A DNA stretch of 10,183 bases from a virus. Lineage: Duplodnaviria; Heunggongvirae; Uroviricota; Caudoviricetes. Both the position numbers and the translations under genes were made by a program. The stretch is from IMG/VR virus record IMGVR_UViG_3300029721_000031. The stretch is one strand, 5' to 3'. The notes under the pieces are model-generated. The model was not told the origin of the DNA. It ran no database searches and was given only the letters and a program-made list of their open reading frames with translations. Shown piece after piece: positions 2,315 to 8,940 of the stretch (position 1 is its first letter; every line of letters begins with the position of its first letter).

Positions 2315-3013
2315 TTACTGCGAAAGTTTGTTAATGGAAAGGAAGCTGCCAAAGTTGCCGACATTATTGCGAAACTTACAGCCACTCAGGCATTTGCTGC
2401 ATTTATCCTTCGTGATATCGGACGTCGGCTGGTCATATTCATCCGCGACCGCCGGACCGCTATAACCGCACTCATCGCCGCGATAGGTCCAGGTGCAGGT
2501 GTTGGCCAGCATGATACGTCCCGGAAAAACAGCGCCATCCGTTTCAGTCGGCGTGGACAGTACAAAAGAGGCACTGACCGCGCTCAGTTCGCTGCACTGC
2601 TCGATGCGCCAGCGGCTGATCACCTCCTGCTCCGGATCGGCTTCGCTGTTTCCGTTGACGAAGTTCACCGCATCCAGAAAGCGGGCGTAAACCTTACGCC
2701 GGACCACCGTTCCGCCGACCAGACTCTGCAGATCTTCCGCCATCCCGGTGATCATGCCGTGCAGGTTAGAGACCGCCAGTGTCGGACGGGCAGCACTGCC
2801 CTTGCCGTTCATCTCAAATCCACTCCCCTGAATGGGATAGGCCTGATACTGCCGACTCTGCCAGGTGACAGACTCACCTTTTTCGTTCTGCTCATTACAG
2901 AAAAAGTAGCGATCCCCGCCTACCTCGGTCAGGTCGATTTCCCAGAGCACCACGCTGGCCGACTGCTCCGCACGAATGCATTCATTCAGCGTTTCCTGTT
3001 GTATGTCCTGCAT
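2315..3013 (-). CDS. L: Minor tail protein L (232 aa)
   Basis: Translation MQDIQQETLNECIRAEQSASVVLWEIDLTEVGG...GNFGSFLSINKLSQ has the same length as lambda gpL and closely matches my recollection of it. The start codon overlaps the M stop (TGATG). Confidence 0.9.
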   Translation of the reverse strand: MQDIQQETLNECIRAEQSASVVLWEIDLTEVGGDRYFFCNEQNEKGESVTWQSRQYQAYPIQGSGFEMNGKGSAARPTLAVSNLHGMITGMAEDLQSLVGGTVVRRKVYARFLDAVNFVNGNSEADPEQEVISRWRIEQCSELSAVSASFVLSTPTETDGAVFPGRIMLANTCTWTYRGDECGYSGPAVADEYDQPTSDITKDKCSKCLSGCKFRNNVGNFGSFLSINKLSQ

Positions 3014-3312
3014 CAGATCACCACTTCGTCAAACTGACACGAAAAATCGGTATAGGTGATATGTTCTGTCGCTGACCACGTTCGACACACCACTCTGATT
3101 TTTCTGTTAATACCCGGCGGGCGCCAAAAAAAAGATTTATAGCCTTCATGCCGGGCTAAAAATTTTTCAAATGAATCACGTTCATTCGCCTCAACTTTGA
3201 AATCACAGGTGAAAACGCGCAGAGAATGATTAAGTCCATTTGGACTTCGTTGCTCATAACCATCGCCAAATCTTACAGTTTTTATCGATGGTTTATTTTC
3301 TGTTTTCATTCC
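3013..3312 (-). CDS. M: Minor tail protein M (about 99 aa from ATG at 3312; the ORF track extends to a GTG at 3351)
   Basis: MKTENKPSIKTVRFGDGYEQRSPNGLN... resembles lambda gpM (conserved VRFGDGY, KSF-W-PP segments). The ATG at 3312 is preceded by GAGGATGGA (Shine-Dalgarno). The alternative GTG at 3351 overlaps the tape measure stop and has no obvious RBS. Confidence 0.8.
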   Translation of the reverse strand, partial: GMKTENKPSIKTVRFGDGYEQRSPNGLNHSLRVFTCDFKVEANERDSFEKFLARHEGYKSFFWRPPGINRKIRVVCRTWSATEHITYTDFSCQFDEVVI

Positions 3313-3343
3313 ATCCTCTGGTAACCAGTGAAATTCTTCCGTA

Positions 3344-6300
3344 TTAGCCACTTAACATTCCCCCATCACGTCGCATATTTAACAGATTGCCCTGCACCCG
3401 CTGATCAACCATCCCCATAAGTGCTTTTATTGCCTGAGGGCCAATCTCTCCATTCTGGCCGTCATTTTGAATAGTGATTTGGTATACAGGGGCATAGGTA
3501 ATATCTCCGCCTCCATTACCACTTTTACTATTAACAGCTCTGACACCAAGAGAACCATCGGAAGTTCGTGTTAATGGCATAATGGCTTCCGGACCAGCCT
3601 CACCAAAAACACCAGCCCCTCTTGCAAAAGCAAAAAATTGCGGGGAATCATAAATACCGTTCGAATACGTGTTCAATGACGGAGACTCATAAACACCGCC
3701 CTTTGCATTCGGAATAAATTTACTAATAGCACTCCCGATAGTTCCTAAAATCCCCCCAGAAGAACTGTTACTAATGCTGTCGAAAATCCCAGTAATTGAA
3801 GCCTTTAATGCTATTCGACTAAGATCCGAAATCACGGAAGTAGCGAAAGAACGAAAATTTGCTTTGCCTGTCGTGACAAAATCACCCAGCGCATCGGTCA
3901 TTCCATCAAACATCTGAGTCGTGGTTGATTTTATCTGCTCACTGATATCCTTAGTGTCATCCAGCCAGTTATTGAATCCCTGGGAGGCACCACTAACCCA
4001 GTCTCCTGCCTGAATATCGAGCTGCTCGTTTTTCTGTCTGACAATTTCTTTTTCTCGTTCCAGAGCATCATTCAGAGCCTGCATTTTCTCCTGAAAAACA
4101 TGATTTGACATCCCACGGGATTTATCTGCATAGTCACGTTCAAGTTGCAGACGCTGATTGTTATATTCACGTTCAATCCGCAGTAATTCCTGCTGGCGTT
4201 GCTGATTTTTATCGCCAACCCCATAACCAGCAATCTGAATATCATACCCCTGTTGACGATTATCAATCGAAGCCTGCAATGAATCACGCCATGCAGCTAT
4301 TTCGGCTGATTCCTTGATTAGCCTGTTATTTTTTTCAATCGCAACATTTTTCTCCATCAACGCGGTTATTTCTTCCCGGTGTAAGAGAAGCGATTTCTGA
4401 TCCTTGGTTAATTTCGATGACGGTCGTGACTCCAGGTCGGCAATCTGCTGACGCCACTTAACCAGTTCCTGTTCAGAGGAACTTAATTTAACGGTTAATT
4501 CAGTTTGTGAACTTAGTAACGCATTCTGTTGATTCAGATGATCAATCATTCGTTGGGCAGCATCATCCGAATAACCTTTCGCCTTTGGTTGCTTTGGATC
4601 TTTATAACGCTCATTTATTTGAGCGATAAGATTATTATATTCTTCCTTTGAATACTGACTCTTTAGTTTTTCCAGTTTTGCAAGTTCACTAGCTCTCTGC
4701 TGCTCCCGGGTCTGATATTGTTTTGAAAAGGCATCTGCTCTCTGTCTGAGTTCAATTCCTTCCTGTTGTCGCTTGTTGTAATCGTTTATTGATGAATTTA
4801 GTACGTCCTGAGCAATTTTTTCTGCTTGAAGTACGCCCAATTGCTGCTTTAATCGTGCCAGCCTTTTATTTTGAGCTCCGCCATCTCCAATGCCACCTAA
4901 CCCGAAAACTCCGGGTCGGGTATTTTTTTCTATTTCATCAATTTGACGGAGAACATCTGAGATTTTTTGATCAAGGGAGGCCTCACGGCCAATATCCAGC
5001 ATGGAATCCCATGCCCATTTTGCGGAGTCTGCGACAGCTTTCCATGCAGTCTCAAGATAACCAAGATTTTCTTTAATCTGGTTGGTGCGCTGGATCATTG
5101 AGGATGAGTATGCTTCTGTCGCAATGCGGGCGGCCTCCTGCTGGTTCCCTTCATCCTGTAGCGCCTTAATCTGGTTATAAGTCGCAATTGTCAGAAAATG
5201 GTACTGATCATTAAGTTTTGATATGGCACTGACAGGATCCTTTGCAATTTCATTGAAGTCATTAACCAGTTGTTCGGTTGATATTCCTGTTACTTCGCTC
5301 GTTTTTACTATCGCTGTCGTCACTTGCTCCAGCGAACTGCTCGCTACCTTTCCCGAACGCACAAGCTGGTTTAATACTGCCGCCGCAGCGCCAGTTGTCG
5401 AATCAGCCGCATTCCCGGCACGTTGAACTATATCGGCCAATTGCCCGCTGGTTGTCCCCAACTGATTTCCGGTAAGAATAAGAGACTTATTAAATTCGTC
5501 CTGCTCCTGAGAGCCTTTATAGTAAGCCAGCCCTAAGACGCCAACGGCTGCTGCGGCCAGGGTAAAAGGATTAATTAATCCCAGCACATAAGAACCAACA
5601 CCTTTGATCGCCGGGCCAATCCCACCGAACATATCTTTTAGCTGGCCGCCCTGCTGCATTAACACCATAAAAGGCGACTGACCAGTGGACAACCCAACAA
5701 CAATATCCGTCATTTGTGCAGGCAACATGCGCATAGCAAAAGCCGTTTGTTTTGCCGACATTCCGGTTTTGCTTAATTGAGATTGAGTAACCTCAAGCTC
5801 ACTCCGCATAGCACGAAGTTTTCCAGAAAGTTCCTCATACATTTCAGGAGAGAGCATCCCCTTAGCTTTTGCTTCATTGAGCTGTTTCTGTTGTTCTACC
5901 AGACGATTAAAAGCAGTTCCGACAGGGTCAAGTTGAGCAATCAGACGTTGCAAAGCAGCAACCTGTTCATCATGCGCTTTTGCTGCTTCTCGCTCTGCCT
6001 GAGCCTCTCCGGTAAGCTCTCGCCGTGTTTCCTGTATTTTTCGGCTATAATTCTCAAACTGAGAACCATTTATTTTCCCGGATGCAAACGCAGCATTAAG
6101 TTCATCCTGCTGTTGTTCAAGATTTCTTAGCGCCGCAGCCAGAGGGTCGATCTTGTCCAGCATTCTTTGAAAGGCCTGAGTCTGCGCTTCCTGCTGGGCG
6201 GCAGCAAGTTTTCCGGCCTTCTCGGCTTCTCTCTGCGCTTGCGCAACCCCGCTCAATTCCTCTGTGGTTTCATTAAGTTTACGGACAAGAAATTCATATT

Positions 6301-6577
6301 CTTCTTTATCAATAAGCCCTTTATCGAAAAATTTCTTTAATTCAGAATAGCGTCGACCGACAGTATCAATTGCGGCACCAACTGGATCAATAGCTGCTTT
6401 TAATTTTGCGAGCGCGTTCTTCTCATCTTCTGTTGCCTTAGTCACTTTCCCTGCGCTATTTGCAGCAGTTTCCCCGGCCTGCGTCATTTTGACTAATGAG
6501 GAGGTCAGATTGTCAGCATTATTTTTTGCTCCAGTGCTATCAATAATTATTGCGAGACGCGAGGTTTGCTCTGCCAT
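3344..6577 (-). CDS. H: Tail tape measure protein (1077 aa), lambda H-like core with an N-terminal repeat extension
   Basis: Long coiled-coil-rich ORF. Segments [59 protein letters not shown], and the C-terminal [38 protein letters not shown] resemble lambda gpH as I recall it. It sits between G-T and M. Start ATG at 6577 with GGAG 9 nt upstream. Confidence 0.92.
5777..6391 (-). repeat. Three tandem in-frame repeats (~73-80 aa each) in the tape measure N-terminus
   Basis: Protein repeats begin IDPVGAAI (aa 63), IDPLAAAL (aa 143) and LDPVGTAF (aa 216). Each is followed by similar helical segments, e.g. [16 protein letters not shown] vs [16 protein letters not shown]. The corresponding DNA motifs (actggatcaatagctgc, agggtcgatcttgtcc, agggtcaagttgagc) are visible on the plus strand. 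Confidence 0.6.
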
Positions 6578-6600
6578 TTATTAAAACTCCAGACAACAAA

Positions 6601-6620
6601 AAGCCCACCGAAGTGGGTTT
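6601..6620 (-). terminator. Terminator-like hairpin (5-bp GC stem, UUCG tetraloop, U5 tract) 24 nt upstream of the tape measure start codon
   Basis: Minus-strand RNA reads AAACCCAC UUCG GUGGG CUUUUUGUUGU. It lies within a 163-nt non-coding spacer (6578..6740) between the T stop and the TMP start. Confidence 0.4.
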
Positions 6621-6740
6621 CAGGCGACATAATAGTAGATATAGCGATTACGAGGCCACGCAATGCTTTTCTCCAGGAGCATCATCGATTTAATTAAAGA
6701 CACCATCACATCTCTGTAACAGAGTGTACGTAATTAACAA

Positions 6741-7061
6741 CTACACACACTGCTCCTGAAAATACTGGTCATCCAGTGCAAAGATCACTGCTTCAAACTC
6801 ATCGCGCTCAATCAATACCGGATGAGTGGCTAAATATTCATTTATCTCTGTCAGAGATAAAGGCAAAGGCACCCCGGTCATTCCAGCATAACGTCGGGCA
6901 CGGGATATTACCGAATAGGCGTACAACAATTCCTTAAGCACCGGGTCTATTTCTGGTTCCGGTATCGGTGGCAACCTGAGTTTTTCTCGCTTCCATCTTG
7001 CCTTTTCCCCCCTTTCTCCCCCGAACTCCGATAACCACCGCTGGGCGGCTATGGCTTTTTT
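6741..7061 (-). CDS. T: T extension of the G-T fusion chaperone, reached by programmed -1 frameshift from G (no ATG of its own)
   Basis: The -1 frame relative to G is open from 7085 to the TAG at 6743..6741 and has no ATG start (the ORF track begins it at a TTG, 6974). A -1 slip at A_AAA_AAG would give ...DTIKK-AIAAQRWLSEFGGERGEKARWKREKLRLPPIPEPEIDPV...QEQCV, a G-T product of about 255 aa. Confidence 0.7.
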   Translation of the reverse strand, partial: KKAIAAQRWLSEFGGERGEKARWKREKLRLPPIPEPEIDPVLKELLYAYSVISRARRYAGMTGVPLPLSLTEINEYLATHPVLIERDEFEAVIFALDDQYFQEQCV

Positions 7062-7510
7062 ATCGTATCCTGCTTCTGCTGCTCTTTACCCTGGGCGATG
7101 CTGGCTGCTTCTGCAAGGATCTGCCAGTACAACTCTGGATTCTGCTTAAGCAGCGCGATCCCTCGTTCTGGCGTATATTCCAGTGCAACCTCAGCACCAT
7201 TAACCAGTTCACCAACCCCTTTCCAGTCTTTCAGCAGATAACGAGCAGCATTATCAATGAGTAAATCATCAACAGAATCTACCTCGGAAACCTTTGAAAT
7301 ATCAAACTCCTTCGTTCCGACGTGCAAACTGGCATCCATTTTCTCAATGTGACGACGGATTAATGCATTACGGGAGCGATACTGATCGTTATCGCTGCTT
7401 GCCACCAACAGTTTTAACCCGTCTATAGGTTTTAAGTCCTTCATTGGCGTAAACCAGCGTTCTCCACCGATGATAATTTTCTGATTAAGAATAAACATCC
7501 ATAACCTCAT
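7049..7510 (-). CDS. G: Tail assembly chaperone G (153 aa from ATG at 7510; alternative start ATG at 7498 gives MFILNQ...)
   Basis: Small acidic ORF immediately downstream of the major tail gene and upstream of the tape measure, i.e. the conserved G position. It ends ...QDTIKKP with a slippery heptamer spanning its last codons. Confidence 0.75.
   Translation of the reverse strand: MRLWMFILNQKIIIGGERWFTPMKDLKPIDGLKLLVASSDNDQYRSRNALIRRHIEKMDASLHVGTKEFDISKVSEVDSVDDLLIDNAARYLLKDWKGVGELVNGAEVALEYTPERGIALLKQNPELYWQILAEAASIAQGKEQQKQDTIKKP
7055..7061 (-). promoter_or_regulatory. Putative -1 ribosomal frameshift slippery heptamer A_AAA_AAG
   Basis: Minus-strand sequence gat acg ata aaa aag cca tag: the heptamer A AAA AAG occupies the last two Lys codons of G, one codon before the G stop. 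The same heptamer type is used by E. coli dnaX. Confidence 0.65.
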
Positions 7511-7519
7511 TCAATGCGT

Positions 7520-7546
7520 CCCCCTGTAGTGCAGTACCACAGGGGG
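7520..7546 (-). promoter_or_regulatory. Strong hairpin in the V-G intergenic region whose 3' arm overlaps the predicted G Shine-Dalgarno
   Basis: Inverted repeat CCCCCTGT(7520..7527) / ACAGGGGG(7539..7546). On the transcript the stem can extend to ~11 bp with one G-U pair and a 5-nt loop. The 3' arm ACAGGGGG ends 9 nt before ATG 7510. No U-tract follows, so it is not a canonical terminator. Confidence 0.45.
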
Positions 7547-7558
7547 AATAACGGAAAA

Positions 7559-8521
7559 TCAACTAATCGCATCAGCACTGGCTTTTGCGATCACGGCAGT
7601 CGGGGAGCATTTTTTTCTGGTTATCGTAGGTGCTTCATCTGCTGCGGTAATGCTCAATTGAACCTGGATAATGTCAGTATTACCCCCATCAGGCCATTCA
7701 CCTGACACCTGAACCTTCGGGAAACTGAAAGTGTATGCCCCCTCTCCATTCGAAAGCGTGAAGCTGAACGGAACTGTTTCTCCAGTCAGTGTTTTACTCC
7801 AGATTTCCCACGCGGCTTTAGACCATGAAAGCGTCACCGTACCGGACGGTGTAAAAGTAGTCGGAATATTTGCTCCTGCATAAGGCGAGCCAGTCCCGAT
7901 ACAACGCTGTGTCTGGAGTTTGTTATCGAACTGAATATCAAAACTGTCGATACAAAAACCGTTACCTCCGGCAACACCATTCAGGCTTACTGCTGAAACC
8001 GCCTTAAACGAATAGCGTAACTTTCCTGCACTATCCACAGGTTCGCCTTTGATAAAATTCGTATCATCGGCCTTTGATTCCCAGCCCAGCCCGGCAAAGG
8101 TTACGGTCGCTGTAATATCGCCGTCGTTAGGGATCTGCATTTTCCATGAGCCAACCTGCGCTCCTCTGACGACAGAGGCAATTCCGACATCGGACGCATA
8201 GGTCGCCAGAGAAAATGTTATTCGCTCATTCCCCATTGTCAGAGAATCGCCTGACCATTCCGCGCCGAAACAGGATGCAAGAAAATCATCATGTTGACCC
8301 CAGCGAAATTTGGTACCAACATCACCGCCGACATCCACAGTGCCAGGCGTCGCCCCCTGAGCCATCCGGGAGCCACCAATCTCATTATTTTCGCCTTTAT
8401 TCTGGGTGGGTTTTACTCCCCAGCTTGTGCGTTTTAATAAACTCCAGTCACCACTTGCTGGCGTAGTGCCTGCAACTGTCTCCCGGATAAATGCCGAGAT
8501 AACCTTTGCACCTGAACTCAC
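7559..8521 (-). CDS. V: Major tail (tube) protein, V-like (320 aa)
   Basis: Position immediately upstream of G/G-T. Gly/Thr/Ser-rich beta-type composition typical of tail tube proteins. GTG start at 8521 preceded by TAGGAGG with a 5-nt spacer. The family assignment is by synteny and composition, not a verified motif. Confidence 0.75.
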   Translation of the reverse strand: MSSGAKVISAFIRETVAGTTPASGDWSLLKRTSWGVKPTQNKGENNEIGGSRMAQGATPGTVDVGGDVGTKFRWGQHDDFLASCFGAEWSGDSLTMGNERITFSLATYASDVGIASVVRGAQVGSWKMQIPNDGDITATVTFAGLGWESKADDTNFIKGEPVDSAGKLRYSFKAVSAVSLNGVAGGNGFCIDSFDIQFDNKLQTQRCIGTGSPYAGANIPTTFTPSGTVTLSWSKAAWEIWSKTLTGETVPFSFTLSNGEGAYTFSFPKVQVSGEWPDGGNTDIIQVQLSITAADEAPTITRKKCSPTAVIAKASADAIS

Positions 8522-8547: not shown

Positions 8548-8940
8548 CTAGAGCGCGCGATATGGAATTTGAAGATTAAGCTGGAACCAGCCATTCTTTT
8601 CGCCGACGGCTATTGAGGAAACAGCCTGGTAACTGAGACGATCGTCATCCTGAAACTCAAACAGTTCCCGCAATTTATCGGCTGTCTCAGTAATGAGTTT
8701 TGAACCAGAACCTGCGGGGACAAATAACTGAATAATGATTATCCCCGTGCGATAAACAACCGGCCCCGCGCCAATTTCATTAACTCCAGCTTGCCCGGGA
8801 ATATTACTTAACCGCGCCCAGATTAACTTACCGGAAGGATCGAACGTTGGCCCGTTCGGATACAATACGTCTTTTCCATCAATAATCGTCTGTGCCGTCA
8901 TTCTGGAAATAACCGTATTTCTGATTTCAGTAAACTTCAT
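8548..8940 (-). CDS. Tail terminator / tail completion protein (gpU-like role), 130 aa
   Basis: Size and position (directly upstream of the major tail gene) match the lambda U / siphovirus tail terminator slot. Start overlaps the upstream stop by 4 nt (ATGA). No specific motif verified. Confidence 0.55.
   Translation of the reverse strand: MKFTEIRNTVISRMTAQTIIDGKDVLYPNGPTFDPSGKLIWARLSNIPGQAGVNEIGAGPVVYRTGIIIIQLFVPAGSGSKLITETADKLRELFEFQDDDRLSYQAVSSIAVGEKNGWFQLNLQIPYRAL

Follow-up and report, generated by a model that had tools for sequence, protein, structure and literature searches.

Frameshifting between the tail genes G and T is near-universal in long-tailed phages (PMC5009743). In lambda, the gpG/gpGT pair arises through a −1 frameshift on the heptamer G_GGA_AAG, and the ratio of G to GT is about 30:1; this work (Levin, Hendrix & Casjens 1993; Xu, Hendrix & Duda 2004, 2013, and 2014) is summarized in PMC5009743. 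Two genes of an HK97-like chaperone cluster shifted at 6 to 7% in reporters (PMC3711429). The heptamer A_AAA_AAG is the slip site of Escherichia coli dnaX (tau/gamma), where shifting reaches about 50% with the help of two stimulators, a Shine-Dalgarno-like sequence upstream and a hairpin downstream (PMC3711429). In E. coli reporters, A_AAA_AAG belongs to the three most efficient heptamers, with 0.29% shifting without stimulators, 4.3% with those of IS911, and 39% with the IS3 pseudoknot, compared to 0.28%, 3.8%, and 43% for G_GGA_AAG (PMC4066793). A tail chaperone with A_AAA_AAG has been recorded before. The genes ECs1801/ECs1802 of prophage Sp9 in E. coli O157:H7 Sakai are listed in cluster A_AAA_AAG_25 as 'tail assembly chaperone; [true]' (PMC4066793 Table S4), and our check of the end of ECs1801 gave AGA AAA AAG TAG. 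Poly-A heptamers are also routine in phage genome papers, one example being AAAAAAC in phage Loki (PMC5313236). For Acinetobacter phage vB_AbaS_TRS1, the deposited genome carries a short chaperone together with a chaperone coding sequence joined from two pieces (TRS1_19).

How does the locus studied here compare with these systems? The window, that is, the whole stretch of 10,183 nucleotides of tailed-phage DNA that was analyzed, is 98 to 100% identical over this region to nine siphophage records from E. coli and to one from Salmonella. The genes around G and T lie on the minus strand in the order tail terminator, tail tube, G, T, tape measure, and minor tail M. The neighbors of the G/T pair are as follows.

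8548..8940, minus strand: tail terminator.
7559..8521, minus strand: tail tube (major tail) gene, directly upstream of G (Pfam Phage_tube_2, E 1.9e-32).
3344..6577, minus strand: tape measure gene, the next gene downstream (Pfam TMP_2, E 1.3e-80; also Tape_meas_lam_C and TMP_4).
3013..3351, minus strand: minor tail M.

G is the intact form of YdaY, a protein of the E. coli Rac prophage. What remains of ydaY in K-12 is truncated at the N terminus and fused next to ynaK, and the heptamer and an intact 104-codon T frame are still there. The locus is common: 1073 of 5426 complete E. coli genomes have it. Its layout in the window is described by the following features.

7049..7498, minus strand: gene G, tail assembly chaperone, 149 aa, with the stop codon TAG at 7051..7049.
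7505..7508, minus strand: GAGG, ribosome-binding site read from the sequence, 6 nt 5' of the G start codon at 7498.
7055..7061, minus strand: slippery heptamer A_AAA_AAG, in X_XXY_YYZ phase with the G frame, the proposed site of a tandem −1 slip of tRNA-Lys.
7049..7085, minus strand: overlap of 37 nt in which the G frame and the −1 frame are both open, with the heptamer inside.
6741..7055, minus strand: T segment in the −1 frame, 104 codons (AIAAQRW...QEQCV), with the stop codon TAG at 6743..6741.

The longest open reading frame for G runs from an ATG at 7510 to 7049 and encodes 153 aa. This ATG is probably not used. In the alignment of G proteins, all homologues begin with M-[FIL]-I-[LI], which corresponds to the Met encoded at 7498. 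Because the homologues start at this Met and a GAGG lies 6 nt upstream, G is most likely 149 aa long and the predicted GT fusion 252 aa long. These lengths replace the 153 aa and about 255 aa given for G and GT in the earlier note.

The 3' end of G reads ...GAT ACG ATA AAA AAG CCA TAG. The single codon CCA separates the heptamer from the G stop, as the earlier note had described, and its count of 104 residues gained by a −1 slip is exact. The predicted junction peptide is ...QQKQDTIKKAIAAQRW, in which ...QDTIKK is joined to AIAAQRW. The −1 frame opens at 7085 and ends with the stop at 6743..6741. It had been described as lacking an ATG and as open well upstream of the G stop. No ATG, GTG, or TTG occurs in the first 27 codons after the heptamer, and the upstream opening amounts to only about 12 codons. 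The sequence AAAAAAG occurs twice in the window compared to 3.2 times expected and is thus not enriched. Finding one of the top two E. coli heptamers in phase within the 12-codon overlap has an expectation of about 0.0015 (12 × 2 × 4^-7) under the assumption of uniform base composition. The real evidence for a frameshift is comparative, in that the site stands at the same position in every related locus that we examined.

Compared at the level of sequence, the locus agrees with the lambda-type G/GT frameshift of Xu, Hendrix, and Duda in every feature by which that arrangement is recognized: the gene pair sits between the major tail and tape measure genes, G belongs to a recognized chaperone family, and the shift site and two-frame layout are kept in diverged homologues with both frames under constraint. 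As in lambda, the downstream reading frame lies in the −1 frame and lacks a start codon, tRNA-Lys reads the A_AAG with which the heptamer closes, and the predicted fusion is of similar size (252 aa here versus 279 aa in lambda). The lambda heptamer G_GGA_AAG is itself used by relatives of this G/T family. Unlike in lambda, where GGA (Gly) occupies the P site, the codon there is AAA (Lys), and neither G nor T has detectable sequence similarity to its lambda counterpart. In addition, T is set apart from the tape measure gene by a 163-nt spacer that includes a terminator-like hairpin, whereas lambda T reaches into the start of H. The Sp9 gene ECs1801 likewise has A_AAA_AAG beside its stop and in the same phase, and a −1 open reading frame and then the tape measure gene come after it. 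We also considered ECs1801 as a member of the same family as this G and rejected it, as BLASTP gave no alignment at E ≤ 100. The YdaY family is absent from the five prophage clusters of PMC4066793, and 'ydaY' appears 0 times in its text or supplements.

The TRS1_18/TRS1_19 pair of phage TRS1 is a true homologue. Identity between T and the C-terminal extension of TRS1_19 is 36%, and the motifs SRxRRY, PLxL, and FALDD are common to both. The TRS1 shift site lies at the same junction but is G_GGA_AAG; its G protein is highly diverged from this G, and its host is Acinetobacter.

We then compared shift sites among about 260 related loci. These comprised 97 loci for which diverse G proteins were aligned, a Klebsiella clade and the Acinetobacter TRS1 clade with 80 loci each, and three single phages (TRS1, Aurca01, and Gungnir39). 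A shift-prone site was present at the G/T junction throughout. All 97 aligned loci carry an in-phase heptamer at one common position in G, at G identities down to 52%. Of these, 94 have A_AAA_AAG, and one Raoultella (L011) and two Pantoea loci (L013 and L016) have G_GGA_AAG. Over all sets, A_AAA_AAG is the form used in Escherichia, Shigella, Salmonella, Citrobacter, Klebsiella, Siccibacter, Dryocola, and Scandinavium. The Klebsiella clade reads GTA AAA AAG CCA TAG in 80/80 loci, and the Acinetobacter clade has G_GGA_AAG in 80/80 loci, always with T in the −1 frame. In Pseudomonas phage Aurca01 the site is G_GAA_AAG, and in Erwinia phage Gungnir39 it is C_GCA_AAG with TAA next. The A-site tetramer A_AAG is constant across relatives; shiftiness is kept, whereas the encoded residue varies between K and G. 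The earlier note had drawn attention to a dnaX-type heptamer in place of the lambda one. The heptamer is indeed A_AAA_AAG; it is not distinctive, however, because it performs about as well as G_GGA_AAG in E. coli reporters, the two interchange within the family, and ECs1801 is on record with it.

These comparisons also bear on whether the slip would be made by the ribosome or by RNA polymerase. Realignment of the polymerase on the run of six consecutive A's could also join the two frames, and poly-A tracts are able to cause such slippage (PMC3711429). However, transcriptional slippage has been described for runs of more than seven A's or eight T's (PMC3711429), and a run of six falls below this. 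Relatives with G_GGA_AAG, G_GAA_AAG, or C_GCA_AAG have at most three to four A's in a row, a pattern that fits re-pairing of tRNAs better than slippage of polymerase. The run also keeps strictly to one phase with respect to G, which matters to a ribosomal but not to a transcriptional event. We therefore regard polymerase slippage as highly improbable at this locus.

Could G and T instead be the two halves of one ancestral gene, split by an indel or a homopolymer sequencing error in a decaying prophage? The family includes the Rac prophage, which is defective in K-12, and several copies (P0001, P0122, P0123, L048, L050, and L062) carry deletions, truncations, or in-frame fusions. Against such decay, T lay in the −1 frame relative to G in 83/83 loci scored for frame, and in these loci homology to T begins right behind a shift-prone site whose position in G is constant. 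The heptamer and the open −1 frame recur across the approximately 260 loci, in several genera and in cultured phages, and at least 80% of an 841-bp query spanning G, the heptamer, and T is held by 1061/5426 complete E. coli genomes. Both frames are under purifying selection. Finally, the position of the zero-frame stop varies while the shift site stays fixed: this stop starts 10, 28, 82, or 112 nt past the first base of the heptamer and the intervening G tails are unconserved, whereas the −1 product is conserved, with a length of 100 to 119 aa. A split pseudogene is thus an extremely improbable account of this gene pair.

To follow coding constraint through the junction, we aligned the −1 frame peptides of 13 diverse loci; the alignment is free of gaps from the first codon after the heptamer. 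With the window sequence as the reference, pN/pS in the T frame was 0.16 to 0.38, as against roughly 0.9 or more for the two remaining frames. In the 27 codons that precede any possible T start, the pooled pN/pS was 0.22, and differences at codon positions 1/2/3 of the −1 frame numbered 73/69/161. The 27 codons upstream of the heptamer showed the periodicity of the G frame (54/27/142). As read from these sequence differences, selection acts on the G frame up to the heptamer and on the −1 frame after it. This switch excludes termination and reinitiation and, for that segment, an internally initiated T gene.

An internal start would make T a free-standing gene, beginning at the TTG at 6974, the GTG at 6941, or a later ATG, and the heptamer would then be incidental. 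Existing annotation agrees with such a gene. Of the two intact-prophage records that we inspected, the GenBank phage has a 'putative protein YdaY' and a 61-aa hypothetical protein, and the RefSeq chromosome has a 119-aa 'YdaY' from an internal TTG and a 66-aa hypothetical protein; neither marks a frameshift. The open reading frame list of the window shows T as a 77-aa TTG frame, and the Met codon of a 'YAGM' motif is common among relatives. The 77-aa entry arises because the earliest ATG, GTG, or TTG in the −1 frame is the TTG at 6974, 27 codons past the heptamer, and the remark in the earlier note that T is misrepresented there as a free-standing TTG frame was borne out. Those 27 start-less codons are nevertheless conserved as protein, as their low pN/pS and third-position bias indicate. 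Reading the sequence directly, we found no plausible Shine-Dalgarno sequence at proper spacing for the candidate starts. The conserved Met is Val in one relative (L012) and Gln in Gungnir39, and the start chosen by gene callers differs between genomes. A free-standing T would also leave unexplained why, at precisely the point where the frames join, a top-ranked heptamer is either retained or exchanged for another. On this evidence an internally started T gene is very unlikely. The fragments of T proposed by gene callers (61 aa, 66 aa, 77 aa, and 60 to 138 aa) are all labeled 'hypothetical,' and the K-12 record has no annotation over T; such scattered short fragments fit with a switch of frame at the heptamer.

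Termination at the G stop followed by reinitiation can be viewed in the same light. The G stop lies only one codon past the heptamer, so terminating ribosomes would be near the start of T. The T frame, however, has no ATG, GTG, or TTG for 27 codons, and in relatives the G stop begins as far as 28 to 112 nt past the first base of the heptamer while T conservation still begins at the heptamer. We assign reinitiation a probability close to nil. The reading that the earlier note proposed, a G/G-T chaperone pair made by a −1 slip on A_AAA_AAG, is supported by synteny, by conservation of the site, by the switch in periodicity, and by the homology of T to that of TRS1. We conclude from these sequence comparisons that the G and T frames in the tail module of this Rac-type lambdoid prophage very probably give two proteins from one start codon through −1 frameshifting, and that T is in all likelihood made in no form other than as the C-terminal part of a 252-aa GT protein.

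What are the G and T proteins? G matched PHROG 313, 'tail assembly chaperone,' with an E of 3e-46. The profile of this family (258 positions) weakly covers T as well, and the family therefore contains fused products. T itself matched PHROG 1189 (E 1.7e-36). Its best match to Pfam PF23812 (Phage_TAC_18) scored 20.3 bits (E 6e-4), below the gathering cutoff of 27 bits, and subthreshold matches to the same family were found in 11/13 T sequences. These scores suggest that T is distantly related to Phage_TAC_18 rather than a member. None of the NCBIfam models matched G or T, and a T profile searched against PDB sequences returned a chance match only. A structure model of T (pLDDT 77) has a predicted fold like that of the C-terminal region of annotated tape-measure chaperones; such proteins, 210 to 310 aa long, rank with its best matches in BFVD, at E about 0.01 and weaker.

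We also considered T as a member of the lambda gpT family. PF06223 (Phage_tail_T) gave no match to T at E ≤ 1, and the 13-member T alignment scored a probability of 0.1% against lambda T in hhalign. On these Pfam and hhalign results we do not assign T to this family, and T is T-like by position only. The earlier note had proposed aligning the fusion with lambda gpGT; given this lack of similarity, the alignment would have failed, and its failure would refute nothing. The role of T as a tube-binding domain is drawn by analogy.

Two elements near the heptamer could modulate the slip.

7028..7054, minus strand: hairpin of 27 nt with 11 bp and −13.1 kcal/mol, beginning 0 nt past the heptamer.
7068..7071, minus strand: AGGA, a weak Shine-Dalgarno-like sequence, 6 nt upstream of the heptamer.

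The hairpin has a z of −3.76, with 0/200 shuffles folding as well, for boundaries that were picked post hoc. The 87-nt region as a whole has a stability like that of shuffled sequences (z 0.14). The hairpin is confined to the E. coli/Shigella/Salmonella clade, with none in more distant relatives, and folds of 13 diverse relatives have no structure in common that could serve as a family-wide downstream RNA stimulator. It may thus be a clade-specific downstream stimulator rather than a family-wide one. The apical 5 bp of the hairpin would lie about 6 nt from the heptamer once the ribosome opens the base of the stem. The AGGA occurs in 11/13 diverse relatives, being missing from L012 and L016, and this signal is confounded with conserved Q/K-D/E codons. 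It is possibly an upstream stimulator. An Rfam scan of 6400..7700 returned only a subthreshold chance match (flpD, 19.4 bits versus a 40-bit cutoff, E 0.25). Both the AGGA and the hairpin are possible modulators that fall outside the conserved signal.

Here the resemblance to dnaX is a matter of the A_AAA_AAG heptamer and its proposed tandem tRNA-Lys slip. Where dnaX has its two stimulators, this locus has only the weak AGGA and the clade-specific hairpin abutting the heptamer, neither of them conserved family-wide. The −1 product is the shorter protein in dnaX, whereas it would be the longer one here. The GT slip would probably have a frequency between a fraction of a percent and several percent. 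In the Rac-type clade of E. coli, the AGGA and the hairpin might act jointly like the dnaX signal and yield far more GT relative to G than the ratio of about 1:30 in lambda, although we consider this unlikely. If true, the stoichiometry of the chaperones in tail assembly would differ within one protein family and would be tunable via a few synonymous changes.

On the basis of these comparisons, we propose the following mechanism. The majority of ribosomes would stop at the G stop codon and release the 149-aa G. A small fraction would pause on A_AAA_AAG with tRNA-Lys on AAA in the P site and on AAG in the A site, both tRNAs would re-pair one base back on A-AA/A-AA, and translation would continue in the −1 frame to give the minor product, a G-T fusion of 252 aa. 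On the model of lambda gpG/gpGT, the tape measure protein would be coated by the G portion common to both products, the T portion would bring in the tail tube protein, and both G and GT would be absent from the virion. In this scheme we infer the slip event, its frequency, and the binding partners, and the basis for the slip is comparative.

Searches of the literature on ydaY and frameshifting, and on the Rac prophage and tail assembly chaperones, which covered sources other than the table of Xu et al. 2004, returned nothing relevant. What is new here is only that the enterobacterial YdaY/Rac family belongs to the G/GT class. A G/GT frameshift at the YdaY locus is ordinary biology and changes no concept. 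The swap between A_AAA_AAG and G_GGA_AAG at a homologous site does provide a clear natural illustration of selection acting on slipperiness and not on residues. The main value of the finding lies in annotation: naming G a tail assembly chaperone and T its frameshift extension gives both a function, the gene starts are corrected, and one more protein family is brought under the near-universal G/GT rule.

The tail assembly chaperone gene G and the -1 frame segment T, which the proposed frameshift would join into the GT fusion, show different degrees of conservation among Acinetobacter relatives. When the related loci L130-L182 were compared with that of Acinetobacter phage TRS1 (L098), identity was only 33-38% in G versus 83-97% in T, and the boundary between the two was the lambda heptamer G_GGA_AAG. 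In these loci, therefore, the frameshift site falls on a mosaic joint. Such a joint fits co-evolution of G and the tape measure protein on one side and of T and the tail tube protein on the other.

Some relatives carry a second in-phase heptamer, G_GGA_AAA (CAG GGA AAA GAG), 30 nt upstream of the main one (loci L070, L072-L082, L086, L088, L089, and L008), and in these carriers the -1 frame is already open at that point. Slippage there, if used, would yield a GT variant with about 10 different residues. The equivalent position in the window is 7091..7085, where the codon is GGT; the upstream heptamer is thereby destroyed and a -1 frame stop, TAA, is created.

Natural derivatives of G and T were also found among the related proteins. 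In P0001, 12 residues (ASIAQGKEQQKQ) are missing; a deletion seems to have brought G and T into one frame upstream of the heptamer, leaving a GT-only allele. T is joined to the first 27 residues of G in P0123 and to a ParB/YnaK-like N-terminus in P0122, and it is truncated in several prophages (L048, L050, and L062). Presumably, all of these derivatives come from decaying prophages.

How is the gene represented in existing annotations? In the intact prophage record that we inspected (RefSeq NZ_CP023820; L002:4133-4492), "YdaY" is a 119-aa product with an internal TTG start, whereas the full gene (window 7049..7498) encodes 149 aa. The length in the RefSeq entry seems to have been taken over from K-12, where the gene is an N-terminally truncated remnant (L101:2493-2852). 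The K-12 Rac prophage itself has kept the heptamer, and downstream of ydaY its T frame of 104 codons is intact but unannotated.

Both intergenic regions flanking G and T contain further elements. The first extends from the tail tube stop (7559) to the G start (7498):

7519..7547, minus strand: strong 12-bp stem-loop without a U-tract

Its folding energy is -22.4 kcal/mol (z = -4.45), a stability equaled in 0 of 200 shuffles, and it may function in the processing or stability of mRNA. The second region is the 163-nt spacer from the T stop (6741) to the tape measure start (6577):

6620..6709, minus strand: bare GTG ORF of 29 codons, MMVSLIKSMMLLEKSIAWPRNRYIYYYVA
6594..6617, minus strand: terminator-like hairpin with a U-tract

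The ribosome-binding site of the tape measure gene lies ∼10 to 15 nt downstream of this hairpin. In relatives, a terminator-like hairpin occupies the equivalent position; its stem differs in sequence, and a similar ...TTG(C/T)C(C/T)GGAG motif comes after it. Sp9 of E. coli O157:H7 Sakai, an unrelated prophage, resembles the window in having such a hairpin. Besides the window, the loci concerned are L077, L073, L084, L091, L014, L015, and L097:20685-20720. Lambda has no spacer at this position. In several relatives the spacer is enlarged to 0.5 to 1.7 kb, apparently with extra ORFs inside, which would make it a candidate hot spot for insertions. The hairpin at 6594..6617 could act in transcription attenuation or mRNA stabilization, and therefore could set the stoichiometry of the tube and chaperone genes relative to the tip genes.
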